Assembly (NCBI RefSeq): GCF_988243305.1
Contig: NZ_OZ547136.1
Direction: 5' to 3' (one strand)
DNA: 64,000 nucleotides
A program made the position numbers and the translations under genes. Each line of letters begins with the position of its first letter. The first letter of the stretch is position 1. Below, one piece after another: positions 34,459 to 55,940 of this stretch. The notes below the pieces were generated by a model. That model ran no database searches. It worked only from the letters and a program-made list of their open reading frames with translations, and had not been told where the DNA came from.

Positions 34459-34522
34459 GTTTGGGTTCAAGATTAGCCCCCGTGATGTTGTCAGGTGCAT
34501 ACCTGCAATATGCGGGGGTTTT
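34459..34522 (+). ncRNA. rdl: Rdl antisense RNA (antitoxin) of ldr copy 1, approximate ends
   Basis: Plus-strand stem-loop agcccccg...cgggggtttt (intrinsic terminator) antisense to the ldr leader; 5' end inferred from the recalled RdlD sequence. Confidence 0.5.
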
Positions 34523-34704
34523 CTCTCTCCAGCAACCAATGCCACTAGGGATTAAGCCCCCGCAACATTGCGCCTCACCGGAACCCTTCCGGCTTGCCGC
34601 TGATTCTACGGCCATTTTTGTTCGTCGAAATCCATCACTTCTTCACTCTGTGCTGCGCATTCCGCAGAATATTATCCGCTTGCAACCGTTGCATTTTTCT
34701 TACG

Positions 34705-34736
34705 AAAAAGGCCGCAGAGTTTTATCCCTGCGGCCT
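34705..34736 (-). terminator. Intrinsic terminator of ldr copy 2
   Basis: Same hairpin plus U-run as in unit 1, shifted by 483 bp. Confidence 0.7.
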
Positions 34737-34785
34737 GATCCGGGCGCAAATTGCCATTACGGCAGCCTGACGCCCGTCTGACACG

Positions 34786-34893
34786 TTACTTCCGCTTGTT
34801 CAGCCAGTTCACGATCAGACTGGCAAGAATGCCAGCAATGACCGGAGCCGCTAAATCATGCCAGAAGGCCATGCCCAGCTCTGCGAGCGTCAT
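34786..34893 (-). CDS. ldr: Type I toxin Ldr, 35 aa (copy 2, ...ILASLIVNWLNKRK)
   Basis: Last 35 codons of ORF 34786..35061 from the internal ATG at 34893. Confidence 0.85.
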   Translation of the reverse strand: MTLAELGMAFWHDLAAPVIAGILASLIVNWLNKRK

Positions 34894-34941
34894 ATAGCCG
34901 CCTGAGTTGTAATGACAACGTTTCGCGGCTATTCTTGTATT

Positions 34942-35005
34942 GTTTGGATGCAAGAATGGCCCCCGTGGTGTTGTCAGGTGCATACCTGCAACGTGCGGGG
35001 GTTTT
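34942..35005 (+). ncRNA. rdl: Rdl antisense RNA of ldr copy 2, approximate ends
   Basis: Plus-strand gcccccgtggtgttgtcaggtgcatacctgcaacgtgcgggggtttt stem-loop and terminator; the 5' part differs from copies 1 and 3. Confidence 0.45.
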
Positions 35006-35187
35006 CTCTCTCCAGCAACCAATGCCACCAGGGATAAAGCCCCCGCAACATTGCGCCTCACCGGAACCTTTCCGGCTTGCCGCTGATTCTACGACTGTTT
35101 TTCTGCTCCGGAATCCGTCACTTCTTCACTCTGTGCTGTGCATTCCGCAGAATATTATCCGCTTGCAACCGTTGCATTTTTCTTACG

Positions 35188-35219
35188 AAAAAGGCCGCAG
35201 AGTTTTATCCCTGCGGCCT
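35188..35219 (-). terminator. Intrinsic terminator of ldr copy 3
   Basis: Same hairpin plus U-run, shifted by 966 bp from unit 1. Confidence 0.7.
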
Positions 35220-35268
35220 GATCCGGACGCAACTTGCCATTACGGCAGCCTGACGCCCGTCTGACACG

Positions 35269-35376
35269 TTACTTCCGCTTATTCAGCCAATTCACGATCA
35301 TGCTGGCAAGAATGCCAGCAATGACCGGAGCCGCTAAATCATGCCAGAAGGCCATGCCCAGTTCTGCGAGCGTCAT
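35269..35376 (-). CDS. ldr: Type I toxin Ldr, 35 aa (copy 3, ...ILASMIVNWLNKRK)
   Basis: Last 35 codons of ORF 35269..35511 from the internal ATG at 35376. Confidence 0.85.
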   Translation of the reverse strand: MTLAELGMAFWHDLAAPVIAGILASMIVNWLNKRK

Positions 35377-35424
35377 ATAGCCGCCTGTGTTGTAATGACA
35401 ACGTTTCGCGGCTATTCTTGAGTG

Positions 35425-35488
35425 GTCTAGGTTCAAGATTAGCCCCCGTGATGTTGTCAGGTGCATACCTGCAACGTGCGGGGGTTTT
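35425..35488 (+). ncRNA. rdl: Rdl antisense RNA of ldr copy 3, approximate ends
   Basis: gtctaggttcaagattagcccccg...cgggggtttt on the plus strand; best match to the RdlD sequence as I recall it. Confidence 0.5.
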
Positions 35489-35851
35489 CTCTCTCCAGCA
35501 ACCAATGCCACCAGGGATTAAGCCCCCGCAACATTGCGCCTCACCGGAACCTTTCCGGCTTGCCGCTGATTTTACGATTGCTTTTTACCGTCAGCACCCG
35601 GCAATCTTCCTCATTGCGCGATGCCTTCCAGCTTAATTTCTTTATTTGCAATAGTTGCAGTTCATATCCGAGCTGACTCCAGACTGGTAGTGAAATGCGC
35701 AATTTTGTAGAATTGCGCCTCCTCGCGACCTCCCCAGTGAATCTGTTGCCTCATTTTTTACATACTGCGTATTCGACTTCTCCACCTGTTGCGCAAGAGA
35801 AACTGGGTTTATTCATTTTTGCGAGGCCGACTTCTTTCTGGACAGGACTTT

Positions 35852-41229: not shown

Positions 41230-42837
41230 TTATTCGATAGAGACGTTTTCGAAGTGATGTTTGCCTAATGGATCAACCACATAGCCTTTAACTTCTTTGC
41301 GTACCGGTTCAAACACGGTGGAGTGAGCGATGATCAGTGCCGGAGCCTGATCGTGCATCACCACCTGCGCTTGCTTGTACAGTTCAACGCGTTTGTTATG
41401 GTCGTCGGTAGCACGCGCCGGTTGAATCAGATCTTCAAACGGTTTGTAGCACCATTTTGAGTAGTTGGAGCCTTGTTCAGAGGCGGCGCAGCTGAACAGG
41501 GTGGCGAAGAAGTTATCCGGATCCCCGTTGTCGCCAGTCCAGCCCATCATTACCGTCTGATGCTCGCCATCTTTCGCACGCTTGAGATACTCACCCCATT
41601 CGTAGGTGACAATTTTGGCCTGCACGCCCACTTTCGCCCAGTCTGCCTGAATCATCTCTGCCATGCGGCGAGCATTCGGGTTATACGGACGTTGTACCGG
41701 CATTGCCCACAGGTCGATGGAGAAGCCTTTTTCCAGGCCCGCTTCTTTCAGCAAGGCTTTCGCTTTTTCGGGATCGTAGGTGTAGTCCTGAACGTCGTCG
41801 TTATAGCCCCACATGGTTGGCGGGATCAGGTTTTTCGCTGCCACGCCCGCGCCCTGATAAACCGCTTTGATGATCGCGTCTTTGTTCACCGCGTAGGTCA
41901 GAGCCTGGCGAACTTTCACATCATCGAGTGGTTTTTTCTGCACGTTATATGAAAGATAGCCGACGTTCAGCCCCGGCATTTCCATCAGGTTGATGGATTT
42001 ATCCTGCTTCATGCGAGCGATGTCTGCCGGGTTCGGGTACGGCATCACCTGGCATTCATTCTTCTGCAATTTCGCGTAACGCACGGAAGCATCAGGGGTA
42101 ATAGAGAAAACCAGCGTATCGATCTGCGGTTTGGTGCCCCAGTAGCCATCAAACGCTTTGTAGCGGATACGGGAATCTTTTTGGTACTGCTGTAACTGGA
42201 ACGGACCGGTGCCGATTGGGTTGAGGTCCAGTTTTTCCGGTGTACCGGCTTTCATCATCGCGTCAGCATATTCTTTTGACAGAATAGAGGCGAAGTCCAT
42301 TGCCAGATCCGCGAGGAACGGCGCTTCCGGGCGAGTCAGCACGAACTGAACGGTGTTATCGTCCACCTTTTTCACTTCGCTGATCAGCTCCGGCAAGCCC
42401 ATGCCTTCGAAGTATTCGTAGCTGCCGCCAGAGACTTTATGGTACGGGTTTTGCGCGTTTTTCTGACGATCGAACGAGAACACCACGTCATCGGCGTTCA
42501 GTTCGCGCGTCGGTTTGAATTCTTTGTTGTCGTGCCACTTCACACCTTTACGCAGATGGAAGGTATAGGTTTTTCCGTCTTCGCTGACTTCCCACTTTTC
42601 AGCGAGGCCCGGGATTACTTCGGTGGTGCCGATTTTAAATTCAACCAGGCGGTTATAAAGCGGCACGGAAGAGGCGTCATAGGTGGTACCGGAGGTAAAC
42701 AGCTGCGGGTTAAACCCTTCCGGAGATCCTTCTGAGCAATAAACCAGAGTTTTAGCCTGAACACTTGCTGCGACGGTCATAGCCACCAGGCTGAGACCAA
42801 GCTTCAGCATCCCTGACTTTTTCAAGGAAATACGCAT
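41230..42837 (-). CDS. dppA: Periplasmic dipeptide-binding protein DppA, 535 aa
   Basis: ORF track; signal peptide MRISLKKSGMLKLGLSLVAMTVAASVQA; recognised as DppA. Confidence 0.97.
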   Translation of the reverse strand: MRISLKKSGMLKLGLSLVAMTVAASVQAKTLVYCSEGSPEGFNPQLFTSGTTYDASSVPLYNRLVEFKIGTTEVIPGLAEKWEVSEDGKTYTFHLRKGVKWHDNKEFKPTRELNADDVVFSFDRQKNAQNPYHKVSGGSYEYFEGMGLPELISEVKKVDDNTVQFVLTRPEAPFLADLAMDFASILSKEYADAMMKAGTPEKLDLNPIGTGPFQLQQYQKDSRIRYKAFDGYWGTKPQIDTLVFSITPDASVRYAKLQKNECQVMPYPNPADIARMKQDKSINLMEMPGLNVGYLSYNVQKKPLDDVKVRQALTYAVNKDAIIKAVYQGAGVAAKNLIPPTMWGYNDDVQDYTYDPEKAKALLKEAGLEKGFSIDLWAMPVQRPYNPNARRMAEMIQADWAKVGVQAKIVTYEWGEYLKRAKDGEHQTVMMGWTGDNGDPDNFFATLFSCAASEQGSNYSKWCYKPFEDLIQPARATDDHNKRVELYKQAQVVMHDQAPALIIAHSTVFEPVRKEVKGYVVDPLGKHHFENVSIE

Positions 42838-42849
42838 TATTCTGCTCCA

Positions 42850-42872
42850 ATTGTGATGTTTGTTGTTTTAAC
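42850..42872 (-). promoter_or_regulatory. CA-rich element in the dppA 5' UTR (known GcvB sRNA target site)
   Basis: Minus-strand AAAACAACAAACATCACAA immediately upstream of the dppA Shine-Dalgarno (GGAG). Confidence 0.65.
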
Positions 42873-43460
42873 CCTTTGCAGTGGGTTGTCGCTGCCTGAC
42901 CTTTTTTGTTTTTTGCCCGGTCGGGTCAACGTTATGAGGTGGGGATGCCGTACTAATTAACATCAGTGTAACAGTGCGGATCCTCCATAAAATGCCCCTC
43001 GTGACCTACAATCTGTCAACAGAATGTGAAAACGTCAATACAGCCAACCGGGATTTACACCAACGGTGAGAATCCACAAACAAAGATTAAAAAAACTTCA
43101 AACAGCTATTTGCAGCAGAGAAATTTGTGCTACTCCAACATGACCAGAACAATCAGCTTAATATTTAGCAACAATTGGTGATTAAGTTTTATGCATTTTG
43201 TGAAAAAAATCTGAGGAAAAGGTGGATATCTGAGCGATTAATACCATGAACGCTAAAACGCACAGCGGAAAATGCCAGCGCCAGTCATAAGTAACGCAAA
43301 AAAAGATTTAAGCAAATATAAAAAAAGACAATGGTTTCTGTCACAAATCCGTTAATGGATAGTGAGATATGGGGCGCAAATTTGGCAGGGAAATGTGTGG
43401 TGTGTTGCCGTTTAGATCGGATAAGACGGATACGCTGTATCCCACAATGAGTGCGGTGCC

Positions 43461-43560
43461 GAATTTGGTCGGTGCCAGAGGATTACTCGCCACTTCGTGG
43501 CTCGCCCTGCGGGCCGTTGCTGGCGCAACGTTCTCTCGCTTCGCTCGAGTCGAACCTCCC
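43461..43560 (-). other. tRNA-Pro-like 3' fragment (pseudo-tRNA remnant) with an approximately 60-nt insertion
   Basis: In proK orientation the segment reads ...ggaggttcga-[about 63 nt]-atcctctggcaccgaccaaattc, matching the proK T-arm and acceptor 3' end plus 6 flanking bases (ggaggttcgaatcctctatcaccgaccaaattc). Confidence 0.4.
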
Positions 43561-43597
43561 TGCCCCCGGAGGTTCTCATCCTCATAGGCTACAAATG

Positions 43598-43630
43598 CAA
43601 AAAAGCCTGCTCGTTGAGCAGGCTTTTCGA
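43598..43630 (-). terminator. proK intrinsic terminator (agcctgctc gttg agcaggct, U-run on the minus strand)
   Basis: 9/8-bp GC-rich stem followed by TTTTTT directly 3' of the tRNA. Confidence 0.85.
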
Positions 43631-43633
43631 ATT

Positions 43634-43710
<77 letters not shown>

Positions 43711-43801
43711 AATGCGGGGCGCATCTTACTGCGCAGATACGCCCTCGTCAATCCCTTAATAGCAAAATGCCTTTTGATCGGCGAGAAAGTCAGCAGGCCT
43801 C

Positions 43802-45493
43802 TTAGTTAGCCGCCGCCTCTCTTGCCTGCGGGATGTGGCACCAGTTGTTGTTTTCGTTAATTCCACCATCCGGTGAAGTATAGCCAAGACAACCCATGAT
43901 GGTGTCGTACAGCTCTACATGACGGCGTGGCACTTTCATGTCGGCTTCTTTTTTCAGCTGCGCAAATGCCTGCGCATTGGCCGGATTTTCTAGATATTTA
44001 TCTGACATCCAGACCATCATCGGCACACGGAACTGCTCCGGCGGTGCCAGTTCACGCGGTGTGCCGTGCAGGTGCTCGCGTTCATTAATTGACTCACCGT
44101 GGTCAGCTGCGTAGAACACAATCGCTTTCTTATCGCGAACCTGATCAATCACGCTGGAGATAAAGTGATCCACATAGGTCACCGAGTTGTCATAGGAGTT
44201 GATCATCTGCGCTTTGGTACAGCCGCTATCAACACCAATACATTCCGGCTTCCACTGCGCAAAGCTGCGCGGGTAACGCTGGGTGTAGTTAAAGTGCGAA
44301 CCTTTGGTATGCAAAATGATCAGATGCTTGCCATCCGGGTTGCGCCCCAGCGATTGCTGCATTTCGTCTACCAGCAACATATCATCTACCGGCTTGCCAC
44401 GGTTACGTGGCTCCGCACCAATCTGCTCACGATAAGCAATGTTGTCTGCCATCGTGTTGCTGTAGAACCACATTTCGCTTTGCATAGCGTAGAGATCAGA
44501 ACTGAATCCTAACTGCTTCAGCACCGCGAAAATGTTCTGTTCTTTTAATGTGCGCTGCGGATTATCTTCCGCGCCCCCCTGACGTACAAACATGCAACGC
44601 AGTGAGAGTTTAGTTGCGGTATCACAGGAGTAACCACGGAACGCTGCCAGATTTTTCTCCTGGGCCAGCTTCGGCGTGGTATTACGCTCATAGCCAAAAA
44701 TGCCCATATGGTCCCAACGCGTGGTTTCACCGATGATAAACACGACATAAGTGTCATCAACGTTTTGCGGTGCCTGATAAGTGAATTTCTTCGCCGGGTT
44801 AAGCAATGAATTATTATCGGAAGATTCATCGACCCGCGCCCAGGCATACAGCCCCAACGCAGAAAGCCAGTTTGATGGCAGATAAGAGTTCGCTACGACA
44901 CCGCCATAGCTGGGCAAATCAACACCGGTCGCCCTCTCCACTTTCTTCTGCTGGATATCCAGCAAACGAATCGGTGCCCAAACCATAATACCCGCCAGTA
45001 CGACGACCGCCAGGCTGCGAATACGCTGCCCTGGGGTTCGCAGTTGTCGGAGCAAGGTGTAGCGACAGCGGTTATTCCAGATAAGGATAAGAGGCAATGC
45101 GCTAACGGCGATTAACCAGAGAATAAAGTTCAGACCAACAACTTCTTTTGACAGGTCGATATCGGTGGTCATGACGGAAGCGATGATGCCATAACCAATG
45201 ACCACATTAAGGAAGGTCATGTAATAGCTGGCACCTGCGGAAAAGAGCACCACCAGCGACGCCAGAATACGCCAGCTACGGCGGCCAAACAGCGAAAGAA
45301 GACGTAGTAAAAAGAAGGTCACCAGTACGGTGGCGGCCAGTTCAACAACAGCAGAAATGCCTTTCCAGACGGTAAAATCGTGCGCATAGCTGCCGAAGCG
45401 GCGGTAAAAAACCGCGCCATTCATAAAAAGGCCAATATAGATTGCAAGCAAAAAGCTCAGCTTCTGCTGTGTAATCGATTTGATGTATCTCAT
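43802..45493 (-). CDS. eptB: Kdo2-lipid A phosphoethanolamine transferase EptB, 563 aa
   Basis: ORF track 43802..45526; canonical start [16 protein letters not shown] at the internal ATG (45493); N-terminal TM segments plus sulfatase-like domain. Confidence 0.94.
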
Positions 45494-45816
45494 GCAAACA
45501 AACCCTGGACAAACAGGTGATAACACCCTGCTTAATGGCTTTTCAGGCCAGGCAGGGGAAAAGTGCGGAGGTAGTCAGATAAGTAAAATCTACACGCGCG
45601 AATAAGTAGACCACAGCAAAGGGAAAAAGTGTGGGGAAAGAGTGTGCACGAAGCACAAATTTACAAAAATGCAAGTTTGAAAAGAGACTTTAGCGTTACA
45701 AAAAGCAGTAAAAAGGGCCAGTTAACTGGCCCAAATTTTACGCGTCATTGTTTATACATTGCGTTGAAGCGTTTGATTCACACTAAGGCTAAAGCCCAGT
45801 AGCTCGCGGCAGATGA

Positions 45817-54870: not shown

Positions 54871-54907
54871 TTGCATCACCCGCCAATGCGTGGCTTAATG
54901 CACATCA
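54871..54907 (+). promoter_or_regulatory. cspA promoter (-35 TTGCAT, -10 CTTAAT, AT-rich UP element upstream)
   Basis: Hexamers with 17-bp spacing ending about 8 bp before the inferred transcription start at 54908. Confidence 0.65.
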
Positions 54908-55066
54908 ACGGTTTGACGTACAGACCATTAAAGCAGTGTAGTAAGGCAAGTCCCTTCAAGAGTTATCGTTGATACCCCTCGTAGTGCACATTCCTTTAAC
55001 GCTTCAAAATCTGTAAAGCACGCCATATCGCCGAAAGGCACACTTAATTATTAAAGGTAATACACT
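54908..55066 (+). promoter_or_regulatory. cspA 159-nt 5' UTR (RNA thermosensor) including the cold box TGACGTACAGA at 54914..54924
   Basis: Cold-box sequence present near the 5' end of the leader; long untranslated leader before the cspA Shine-Dalgarno. Confidence 0.75.
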
Positions 55067-55279
55067 ATGTCCGGTAAAATGACTGGTATCGTAAAATGGT
55101 TCAACGCTGACAAAGGCTTCGGCTTCATCACTCCTGACGATGGCTCTAAAGACGTGTTCGTACACTTCTCTGCTATCCAGAACGATGGTTACAAATCTCT
55201 GGACGAAGGTCAGAAAGTGTCCTTCACCATCGAAAGCGGCGCTAAAGGCCCGGCAGCTGGTAACGTAACCAGCCTGTAA
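55067..55279 (+). CDS. cspA: Major cold-shock protein CspA, 70 aa
   Basis: ORF track; RNP1 KGFGFI and RNP2 VFVHF motifs; exact recognition of [34 protein letters not shown]... Confidence 0.98.
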
Positions 55280-55306
55280 TCTCTGCTTAAAAGCACAGAA
55301 TCTAAG

Positions 55307-55335
55307 ATCCCTGCCATTTGGCGGGGATTTTTTTA
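55307..55335 (+). terminator. cspA intrinsic terminator (atccctgcc attt ggcggggat followed by TTTTTTT)
   Basis: GC-rich hairpin plus T7 run 28 bp after the cspA stop. Confidence 0.9.
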
Positions 55336-55466
55336 TTTGTTTTTCAGGAAATAAATAATCGATCGCGTAATAAAATCTATTATTATTTTTGTGAAAAATA
55401 AATTTGGGTGCAATGAGAATGCGCAACGCCGTAAGAAAGGCGGGAATAACTTCCCGCCGAAGACTC

Positions 55467-55619
55467 TTACTCTTTCAAATTGCAGGCTAAAAATGCCGCC
55501 AGCTCATAACTCCCCTGTTTAATATGCAATTCACACAGTGAATCTCTTATCATCCAGGTGAAAAATAAAAGCGTGCAACAAATCACTATTAAAGAAAGTA
55601 ATCTATATTTCTGCGGCAT
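55467..55619 (-). CDS. hokA: Type I toxin HokA (Hok/Gef family small membrane toxin), 50 aa
   Basis: Internal ATG of ORF 55467..55679 with AGGAGG Shine-Dalgarno 6 nt upstream; MPQKYRLLSLIVICCTLLFFTWMIRDSLCELHIKQGSYELAAFLACNLKE. Confidence 0.88.
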   Translation of the reverse strand: MPQKYRLLSLIVICCTLLFFTWMIRDSLCELHIKQGSYELAAFLACNLKE

Positions 55620-55940
55620 TCCCAGCCTCCTGTGTTGATTTCCAACGAGTAAGAGGCTAACCTTATGGTGTTCAGGCATAGGGTAGCCTCACTTTGATTT
55701 ATAGTCAGGTGGGGCTTTTCTCTGTCTGCCTTTCGGTGAATACCTGAGACAAACAGTCTCAAGCACCCGCAGCTATTCTAGCTTAATAAGTTCGTTTCTT
55801 CTCCTTGATATAATCCTAAAAAAATCTCATAAAATTAATATATGAGACAATCTTTATTCAGCAGAAGATTATTAAAGGTTGCTCTATTATTTAGCGATAA
55901 AAAAGCCTGCCAGATGGCAGGCTTTTTAATAACGGCGTTA

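Follow-up and report, generated by a model that had tools for sequence, protein, structure and literature searches.

The proK locus

The window is a stretch of DNA 64,000 nucleotides long, and the fragment under study lies in its E. coli eptB–proK–dppA region. Both flanking genes are encoded on the minus strand, eptB at 43802..45526 and dppA at 41230..42837. A 461-bp query taken round the fragment is 100% identical in an O169:H41 genome and finds matches in 5422 of 5426 complete E. coli genomes. The parts of the locus, following the minus strand from the 5′ side of proK, are listed below.

43723..43751, minus strand: promoter-like site 5′ of proK (TTGACG, 17-nt spacer, TAAGAT), from a consensus scan
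43634..43710, minus strand: proK, tRNA-Pro(CGG), whose T-arm and 3′ end are the template of the copy (ARAGORN; Rfam tRNA model, 60.7 bits)
43598..43633, minus strand: proK trailer (AATTC...) and intrinsic terminator, between proK and the repeat (read from the sequence)
43628..43600, minus strand: proK terminator hairpin, GAAAAGCCTGCTC-AAC-GAGCAGGCTTTTT, followed by a T-run (read from the sequence)
43466..43601, minus strand: complete RtT RNA / tRNA-linked repeat (TLR) unit (Rfam RF00391)
43568..43583, minus strand: GAGGATGAGAACCTCC, a T-arm-like segment with the strands of the proK T-stem and a different 7-nt loop (minimum free energy (MFE) fold)
43550..43559, minus strand: GGAGGTTCGA, the 5′ strand of the proK T-stem with 5 nt from the start of the T-loop (identical to proK 43661..43652)
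43484..43549, minus strand: conserved TLR core of 66 nt at the position of the T-loop, with four small hairpins
43466..43483, minus strand: ATCCTCTGGCACCGACCA, the 18-nt copy of the proK 3′ end that is the hallmark of the family, made up of AT, the 3′ strands of T-stem and acceptor, and CCA (16/18, TAT replaced by TGG)
43461..43465, minus strand: AATTC, repeating the opening 5 nt of the proK trailer (alignment A1)
43415..43443, minus strand: diverged REP-like palindrome 3′ of the repeat, given for context and outside the TLR (allele alignment)

The consensus match at 43723..43751 marks a putative promoter for proK. The proK terminator has a 13-bp stem of −18.2 kcal/mol followed by six T (ViennaRNA), and positions 43601-43627 are also matched by the terminator segments of several Rfam leader models. 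A consensus terminator scan of 42800-43900 reported none, although this hairpin (43600-43628) is easily recognised by eye. On the minus strand proK runs to 43634 and the repeat sets in at 43601; the repeat thus lies directly downstream of the tRNA gene and is co-oriented with it. About 150 bp separate the two proK 3′ ends, and this DNA holds the terminator and a structured RNA but no gene. The start codon of dppA follows more than 600 bp after the repeat. In the allele alignment, the palindrome at 43415..43443 beyond the repeat falls on the part of the K-12 and O157 alleles that holds REP / naRNA4.

A complete RtT RNA ends in the proK-like fragment

We compared the segment ATCCTCTGGCACCGACCAAATTC (43483..43461, minus strand) with the 3′ end of proK and the first 5 nt of its trailer, and 21 of 23 positions agree. 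The two mismatches stand side by side and turn TAT into TGG. When the 796-bp spacer was shuffled 5000 times, the highest score was 18/23, reached once, and in the rest of the 64-kb window only proK itself scores 18/23 or better. The likeness is therefore far beyond chance. The initial annotation, which had described a fragment reproducing the T-arm and acceptor 3′ end of proK and had proposed a shuffled-sequence test of it, was thus right about the resemblance. Its two mismatches and its insertion at the position of the T-loop are likewise present, and such an interruption is the general anatomy of the TLR family. One length needed correction: the insert between GGAGGTTCGA and the 3′ block is there but measures 66 nt (43549..43484) rather than about 63. 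The copied 3′ flank covers the first 5 nt of the trailer (AATTC).

An Rfam scan of the whole window at the gathering threshold (45 bits for RF00391) matches the RtT RNA model to 43601..43466 on the minus strand with 98.7 bits (E = 8e-19), over model positions 1-130 of 130 and with no truncation. Since this match is full-length, what looks like a piece of proK forms the 3′ portion of an intact element that is already known. Comparable scores are obtained from the K-12 proK copy (101 bits) and from four tyrT copies (133-138 bits). The identification of the fragment as the 3′ end of an RtT RNA, or TLR, by its covariance-model score is essentially settled. At the homologous position the annotation pipeline PGAP places an 'RtT sRNA' in many E. 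coli genomes, and the curated K-12 record has no feature at the proK repeat, which explains why the fragment had been called unannotated. That description holds for the curated record but not for the PGAP-annotated genomes.

tRNA-linked repeats were first described by Egan and Landy in 1978, as cited in PMC8144298, and the same source attributes to Rudd (1999) a count of 22 copies at ten loci in K-12. [quoted passage not shown] By this strict identity, the window allele agrees with its upstream gene at 16 of 18 positions and the K-12-type allele of the same locus at 18 of 18. We read the window repeat as a slightly decayed member of the family. Both the TLR family and this type of locus are already known, and the window holds a variant allele.

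The substitution of TGG for TAT (window 43475-43477; ..CTGGCACCGACCA) is also found in the proK repeat of Phytobacter massiliensis (locus L083). The proK gene itself has TAT in both the window species and Phytobacter. A variant common to the two may be an ancient polymorphism, a transfer or a parallel change.

The number of repeat units varies between E. coli alleles

To describe the tandem unit we used an alignment of the window with three other E. coli alleles (A1). Each unit begins in the proK T-loop (ATCC...), runs through the trailer, the terminator, the T-arm-like segment and GGAGGTTCGA, and ends with the core. O157-type alleles stop after ...GAGGTTCGACTCGA, pass into a REP element and contain no core. 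K-12-type alleles continue beyond the core with an 18/18 proK end, then repeat the terminator and part of another unit before they reach a REP element; in all they amount to about 1.6 units. The window allele has one unit, in which the core and the 16/18 proK end are joined directly to CGGCACCGCAC. Missing from it are 124 bases present in K-12 (A1 columns 260-383), which follow AATTC directly and hold the second terminator, the partial third unit and the REP element, and the junction shares only CG.

Across the 5426 E. coli genomes, the proK-type core is present at 99% identity or more in 2634, and about half are without it. The window-type junction occurs in about 278 of the 5426. Where present, the core is 100% identical in many E. 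coli, and it is 82% identical to the cores of the tyrT type. Thus the strain polymorphism at proK is, among the alleles aligned, one of unit number and not of the presence or absence of an island. The change between none, one and about 1.6 units is most simply explained, from the arrangement of the alleles, by unequal recombination between repeats. Any function of the proK repeat is dispensable, given that about half of the genomes are without the core.

Other differences were seen in the same spacer. The REP unit that gives an Rfam naRNA4 match in K-12 and O157 is absent from the window allele (compared with L001, L002 and L005), and the REP-like palindrome that remains in 43415-43460 is diverged and includes an 8-bp indel. 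This pattern suggests that the window spacer is a distinct, possibly imported, haplotype. In E. coli GPEC1356 (L004 2724-3979) an IS3-family element sits just after the proK terminator and replaces the repeat region.

Repeats carry the 3′ end of their own upstream tRNA

The core pattern GCAACGGCCCGNAGGGCGA, run against a single genome of each species, revealed at least 161 cores, distributed over at least 120 loci. Among the matches listed, 120 cores have a co-oriented tRNA no more than 700 nt upstream, and 106 of these reproduce the last 18 nt of that very tRNA at a fixed offset of 33-37 nt, 96 of them perfectly (18/18) and 10 with a single mismatch (17/18). The best non-cognate tRNA end usually reaches 13-15 of 18 for the cores listed. 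The tRNAs concerned, among the matches listed, are Arg(ACG), Lys(UUU), Pro(CGG), Pro(UGG), Tyr(GUA), Gln(UUG) and Arg(CCG); for Ser(UGA) in Vibrionaceae the cores listed include weak matches only. The hosts among the listed matches are many Enterobacterales, Marinobacterium, Aquisalimonas and one uncultured gammaproteobacterium.

The repeat follows the variant of the tRNA found in its own species. For tRNA-Arg the repeat ends as ...CCCGGATG, ...CCTGGATG or ATCTTCCTGGGTG, and for tRNA-Tyr as ...TTCCCCC, ...TTCTCCC or ...TCCCCCCT, each in step with the gene upstream. Within the lys operon of Citrobacter youngae (L052), one tRNA-Lys has the acceptor variant ACGCCCC and the adjoining repeat carries the same variant; as read from these sequences, this is a concerted change of tRNA and repeat within one genome.

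The proK repeat itself is found at the same locus in at least ten genera, namely Escherichia (E. coli, E. albertii), Salmonella, Citrobacter, Enterobacter, Pluralibacter, Pseudescherichia, Phytobacter, Pseudocitrobacter, Kluyvera and Pseudenterobacter. In most of them the units repeat that species' own trailer and terminator, which implies homogenisation within the arrays.

A search with the 66-nt core also uncovered shorter relatives in the E. coli serV-argV and lysT-valT operons. These short units (L007 2657-3330 in the arg operon; L009 2966-3660 in the lys/val operon) surfaced only in a sensitive BLAST search with the core; they carry no PGAP annotation and presumably score below the Rfam threshold. 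Like the proK repeat they have a 5′ arm that can pair with their 3′ strand, as well as the final three hairpins of the core. They end with ATCC followed by the T-stem 3′ strand, the acceptor 3′ strand and the CCA of their own upstream tRNA, and the copied end is 18 nt long. The three shared stems are CGUUGC/GCAACG, GCCC/GGGC and a third, GC-rich stem that is GCCAC/GUGGC in the window. Unlike the proK repeat, the short units are without a segment of about 40 nt that holds the second T-arm-like hairpin and the first core stem-loop; this stem-loop (CUCGAGCGAAGCGAGAG) is specific to the long form.

Covariation supports a conserved RNA structure

Folded alone, the unit reaches −56 kcal/mol (z = −3.0), and 2 of 200 shuffles were as good. 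The MFE fold comprises a closing helix (GAGGAU/AUCCUC), a hairpin formed by GAACCUCC and GGAGGUUC, and the four small hairpins of the core. The possible pairings bring together GAGGAT (43583..43578) with the ATCCTC of the 3′ copy, and GAACCTCC (43575..43568) with GGAGGTTC.

We then examined these helices in 37 aligned units of the long form, which represent five tRNA types (A2). Of all cells in the alignment of paired positions, 90.5% can pair; 15 pairs have changed on both sides, and none of 500 shuffles was as good. As a control, sliding the 3′ partners by 1-3 columns lowered the paired fraction to 32-47%. The closing helix (94.6% paired) and the inner hairpin (90.7%) show compensatory changes between tRNA types, and such changes are clearest in the first core stem-loop, the third core hairpin and the tRNA-specific positions of the arms. 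Among core helices with compensatory changes, four of five pairs are affected in the third hairpin and both pairs in another helix. Two further core helices are invariant, in part because the search pattern fixed one strand of each, and are uninformative on covariation. The four T-stem-like segments admit two nested pairings, which the covariation in A2 supports equally. A conserved secondary structure backed by covariation is present in the family.

In the repeats of the window and of Phytobacter, the new GGC has a possible pairing partner in a GCC that lies 3 nt before GAGGAT. This GCC/GGC extension of the closing helix is window-specific and is not conserved across A2, where 32% of cells are paired.

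The short form has a single possible closing helix, made by the 5′ arm with the tRNA-like 3′ strand, which, as read from the sequences, would leave its last 8 nt or so single-stranded. In an unanchored RNA-duplex test of the 5′ regions against tRNA 3′ strands, the unit's own strand was the best partner in 22.5% of cases and never for the Pro types. This test is uninformative, because the G-rich neighbouring segments pair with the GC-rich ends of other tRNAs.

Origin of the duplicated proK end

A partial copy of a tRNA 3′ end had suggested a scar of integrase-mediated insertion or excision, in which the duplicated proK end would be the attL or attR left by a lost phage or island that had entered the T-loop or 3′ end of proK. 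The break does fall inside the T-loop, where one class of tyrosine integrases, as Williams is said to have described in 2002, crosses over. A relative also offers some encouragement for this reading. In Salmonella Infantis SARB27 a third, truncated proK unit is fused within its core, at ...GAGAGAACG|CCAAGG..., to a 5′-truncated, P4-like integrase pseudogene (L010 1999-2440, equal to L012 8761-9198). The pseudogene belongs to Pfam Phage_int_M (E = 1.5e-17) and matches solved integrase domains, and a 6.5-kb islet with an AAA-domain protein, a LacI-family regulator, STM3632 and a xanthine/uracil permease lies before dppA. The proK locus has thus probably been an integration site in a relative, as the initial annotation had wondered, but the Salmonella integrase fragment found no match in the 5426 E. 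coli genomes, and in a tblastn search of 132 sampled loci it matched only itself. No far-side proK-end repeat of the Salmonella islet was found within 3 mismatches of 23. In S. houtenae the array is present and the islet absent, which shows that the array does not depend on it. The window itself holds no integrase or island, as had been noted before, its flanking ORFs being EptB and DppA. Against a scar stands the design of the element: the unit is a complete RtT RNA, the same core and architecture recur behind several tRNA types (Tyr, Lys, Arg, Pro(UGG), Gln) and, according to PMC8144298, behind 5S rRNA, and only about 150 bp free of genes separate the repeats. Nor does an attachment-site scar predict a 5′ arm complementary to the tRNA-specific strand. 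Within the 50,697 phage records searched we found no proK attachment site; the matches to the 3′ half of proK were whole phage tRNA-Pro genes or mis-filed Salmonella contigs. Taken together, these observations make an integration scar highly improbable. The duplicated tRNA end beside proK is the signature of a family known since 1978 and catalogued in 1999, and is no evidence of a lost island.

Recombination without any role for the RNA deserves more weight. Here the repeat would be a neutral by-product, a tandem DNA duplication homogenised by recombination whose RNA structure is unselected. The polymorphism within E. coli, both in presence and in unit number, agrees with this, as do units that share their species' own terminator, a sign of ongoing homogenisation, and the absence of a known phenotype for TLRs (PMC8144298); in the long tandem form, concerted evolution alone could preserve the identity of the 3′ end. 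Neutrality accounts less readily for the compensatory double changes in the core helices and arms across tRNA types, or for a core conserved from Enterobacterales to Marinobacterium and Aquisalimonas. The short lys/arg form has no more than 18 nt in common with the tRNA and differs in its flanks, and yet the identity is kept across genera. Neutral duplication is accordingly a possible account of the long tandem form and a poor fit for the short one, and as an explanation of the whole we consider it rather unlikely. The same compensatory substitutions fit an RNA better than a protein, and bear on the idea that the repeat encodes an arginine-rich, Tpr-like peptide. Tpr is annotated inside the K-12 tyrT repeat, and a 57-codon ORF of the window (43585..43412, minus strand) is in the frame of K-12 Tpr (...RERCRRQRPEGRSAQR). 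This ORF, however, runs on into allele-specific flank, and the frame is not conserved, since proK-type repeats of different genera differ by 1-2-nt indels between the start codon and the core (A2 columns 32-41) and by single-base indels at columns 62, 68 and 82. We therefore give a small-protein gene very little credence. Equally, a degenerate tRNA-Pro pseudogene or a part of the dppA regulatory region could be imagined from the 28 nt of tRNA-Pro-like sequence and from their place in the spacer upstream of dppA. The repeat, however, lies more than 600 bp from the dppA start and is missing from roughly half of E. coli genomes in which dppA is intact, which does away with the universal conservation that had been considered for a dppA regulatory segment. 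Searching 43200-43800 with ARAGORN and with the Rfam tRNA model at E values up to 10 recovered proK alone and gave no signal from the fragment. A tRNA pseudogene was rejected on this ground, there being no cloverleaf beyond proK by either method, and the pseudogene and regulatory readings together are extremely improbable.

Two entries of the phage collection, AFYI01000003.1 and AGRM01000003.1, are Salmonella whole-genome shotgun contigs of about 0.5 Mb and thus a contamination of that collection.

Proposed mechanism and role

We regard it as very probable that the locus as a whole is an RtT/TLR unit beyond the proK terminator, subject to variable tandem duplication, which would yield a read-through RNA. 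By analogy with the RtT RNA of tyrT and with RrA, RrB and RrF, the RNA of the proK unit would arise solely from transcripts that pass the proK terminator. Its fold would be a multi-branched structure in which the 5′ arm and the tRNA-like 3′ strand form the closing helix, while a tail with the sequence of the tRNA 3′ end would stay single-stranded. As proposed for RrB (PMC8144298), the tRNA-like end and trailer might recruit the RNase E cut and the trimming that mature the tRNA. Transcription and processing of the proK repeat, which we infer from these analogies, could be very low, because a strong terminator (−18.2 kcal/mol, six U) precedes the repeat and the second terminator is missing.

No function is known for TLRs (Stenum et al. 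2021, PMC8144298). A role in the stringent response was claimed in 1991 and withdrawn in 1994 (Bosl and Kersten), and in the account cited in PMC8144298 this is the only phenotype published for the family. The maintenance of the tRNA-matched end and of the helices across many tRNA types and genera argues that TLRs are not mere debris. One speculative possibility is an RNA module under selection that displays, in single-stranded form, a copy of the 3′ acceptor strand of the tRNA it accompanies. We propose it since the 18-nt end tracks the variants of seven or more tRNA types, including cases in which these 18 nt are all that is shared, and since the 5′ arm co-varies with this end; on balance we still hold it to be quite unlikely. 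The displayed 3′ strand is complementary to the 5′ acceptor strand of the tRNA. If such a module exists, it could act on the maturation or quality control of the adjacent pre-tRNA, or could sequester a factor that recognises the 3′ ends of tRNAs. At the level of DNA, a spare attachment site could divert integrases from the tRNA gene, an idea that arises because the Salmonella integrase remnant adjoins a repeat unit and not proK. The natural proK alleles with zero, one and about 1.6 units could be used to test function.

Other features of the window

Three matches to the rdlD antitoxin RNA, 483 bp apart and scoring 81.7-90.4 bits, lie at 34459-35490, indicating a putative tandem triple array of the ldr/rdl type I toxin-antitoxin system; K-12 has a single ldrD/rdlD in the corresponding region. 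At 54907-55768 lie two features usual for this part of the chromosome, the cspA thermoregulator 5′ UTR with 501 bits and an antitoxin RNA of the sok type with 124 bits, the latter presumably the hokA/sokA locus.

Comparison with known systems

The attL and attR sites of elements that integrate at tRNA genes with P4-like tyrosine integrases resemble the proK repeat in being direct repeats of a tRNA 3′ part that begin in the T-loop. Unlike these sites, the proK repeat has no element between its copies, contains a structured core and a complementary 5′ arm, and belongs to a family that accompanies many tRNAs and 5S rRNA.

The 3′ external transcribed spacer of leuZ, as presented in PMC8144298, sponges small RNAs, and shows that a by-product of a tRNA unit could persist as RNA. 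It has no sequence or structural similarity to TLRs, which are not known to pair with targets.

RrA, RrB and RrF are small RNAs of the TLR family located between the dual terminators of rrnA, rrnB and rrnD (PMC8144298). Like the proK repeat, they come after the first terminator and end in an 18-nt copy of the upstream stable RNA, and they have been proposed to arise by read-through of that terminator followed by cleavage by RNase E after the repeat (PMC8144298). They differ from it in following 5S rRNA, in carrying GGA motifs and in binding Hfq and CsrA in vitro; tRNA-linked TLRs were scored as unlikely CsrA binders, with a probability below 0.01 (PMC8144298).

The RtT RNA of the tyrT operon (rttR, RF00391) differs from the proK repeat, which has the proK T-stem sequence in its arms and an intrinsic terminator between tRNA and repeat, and from the window allele in particular, with its two substitutions in the 3′ copy and its missing second terminator. 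In other respects the tyrT and proK repeats follow one plan: both lie co-oriented downstream of a tRNA, share the same conserved core, occur as tandem units and end in a sequence copied from the tRNA upstream.
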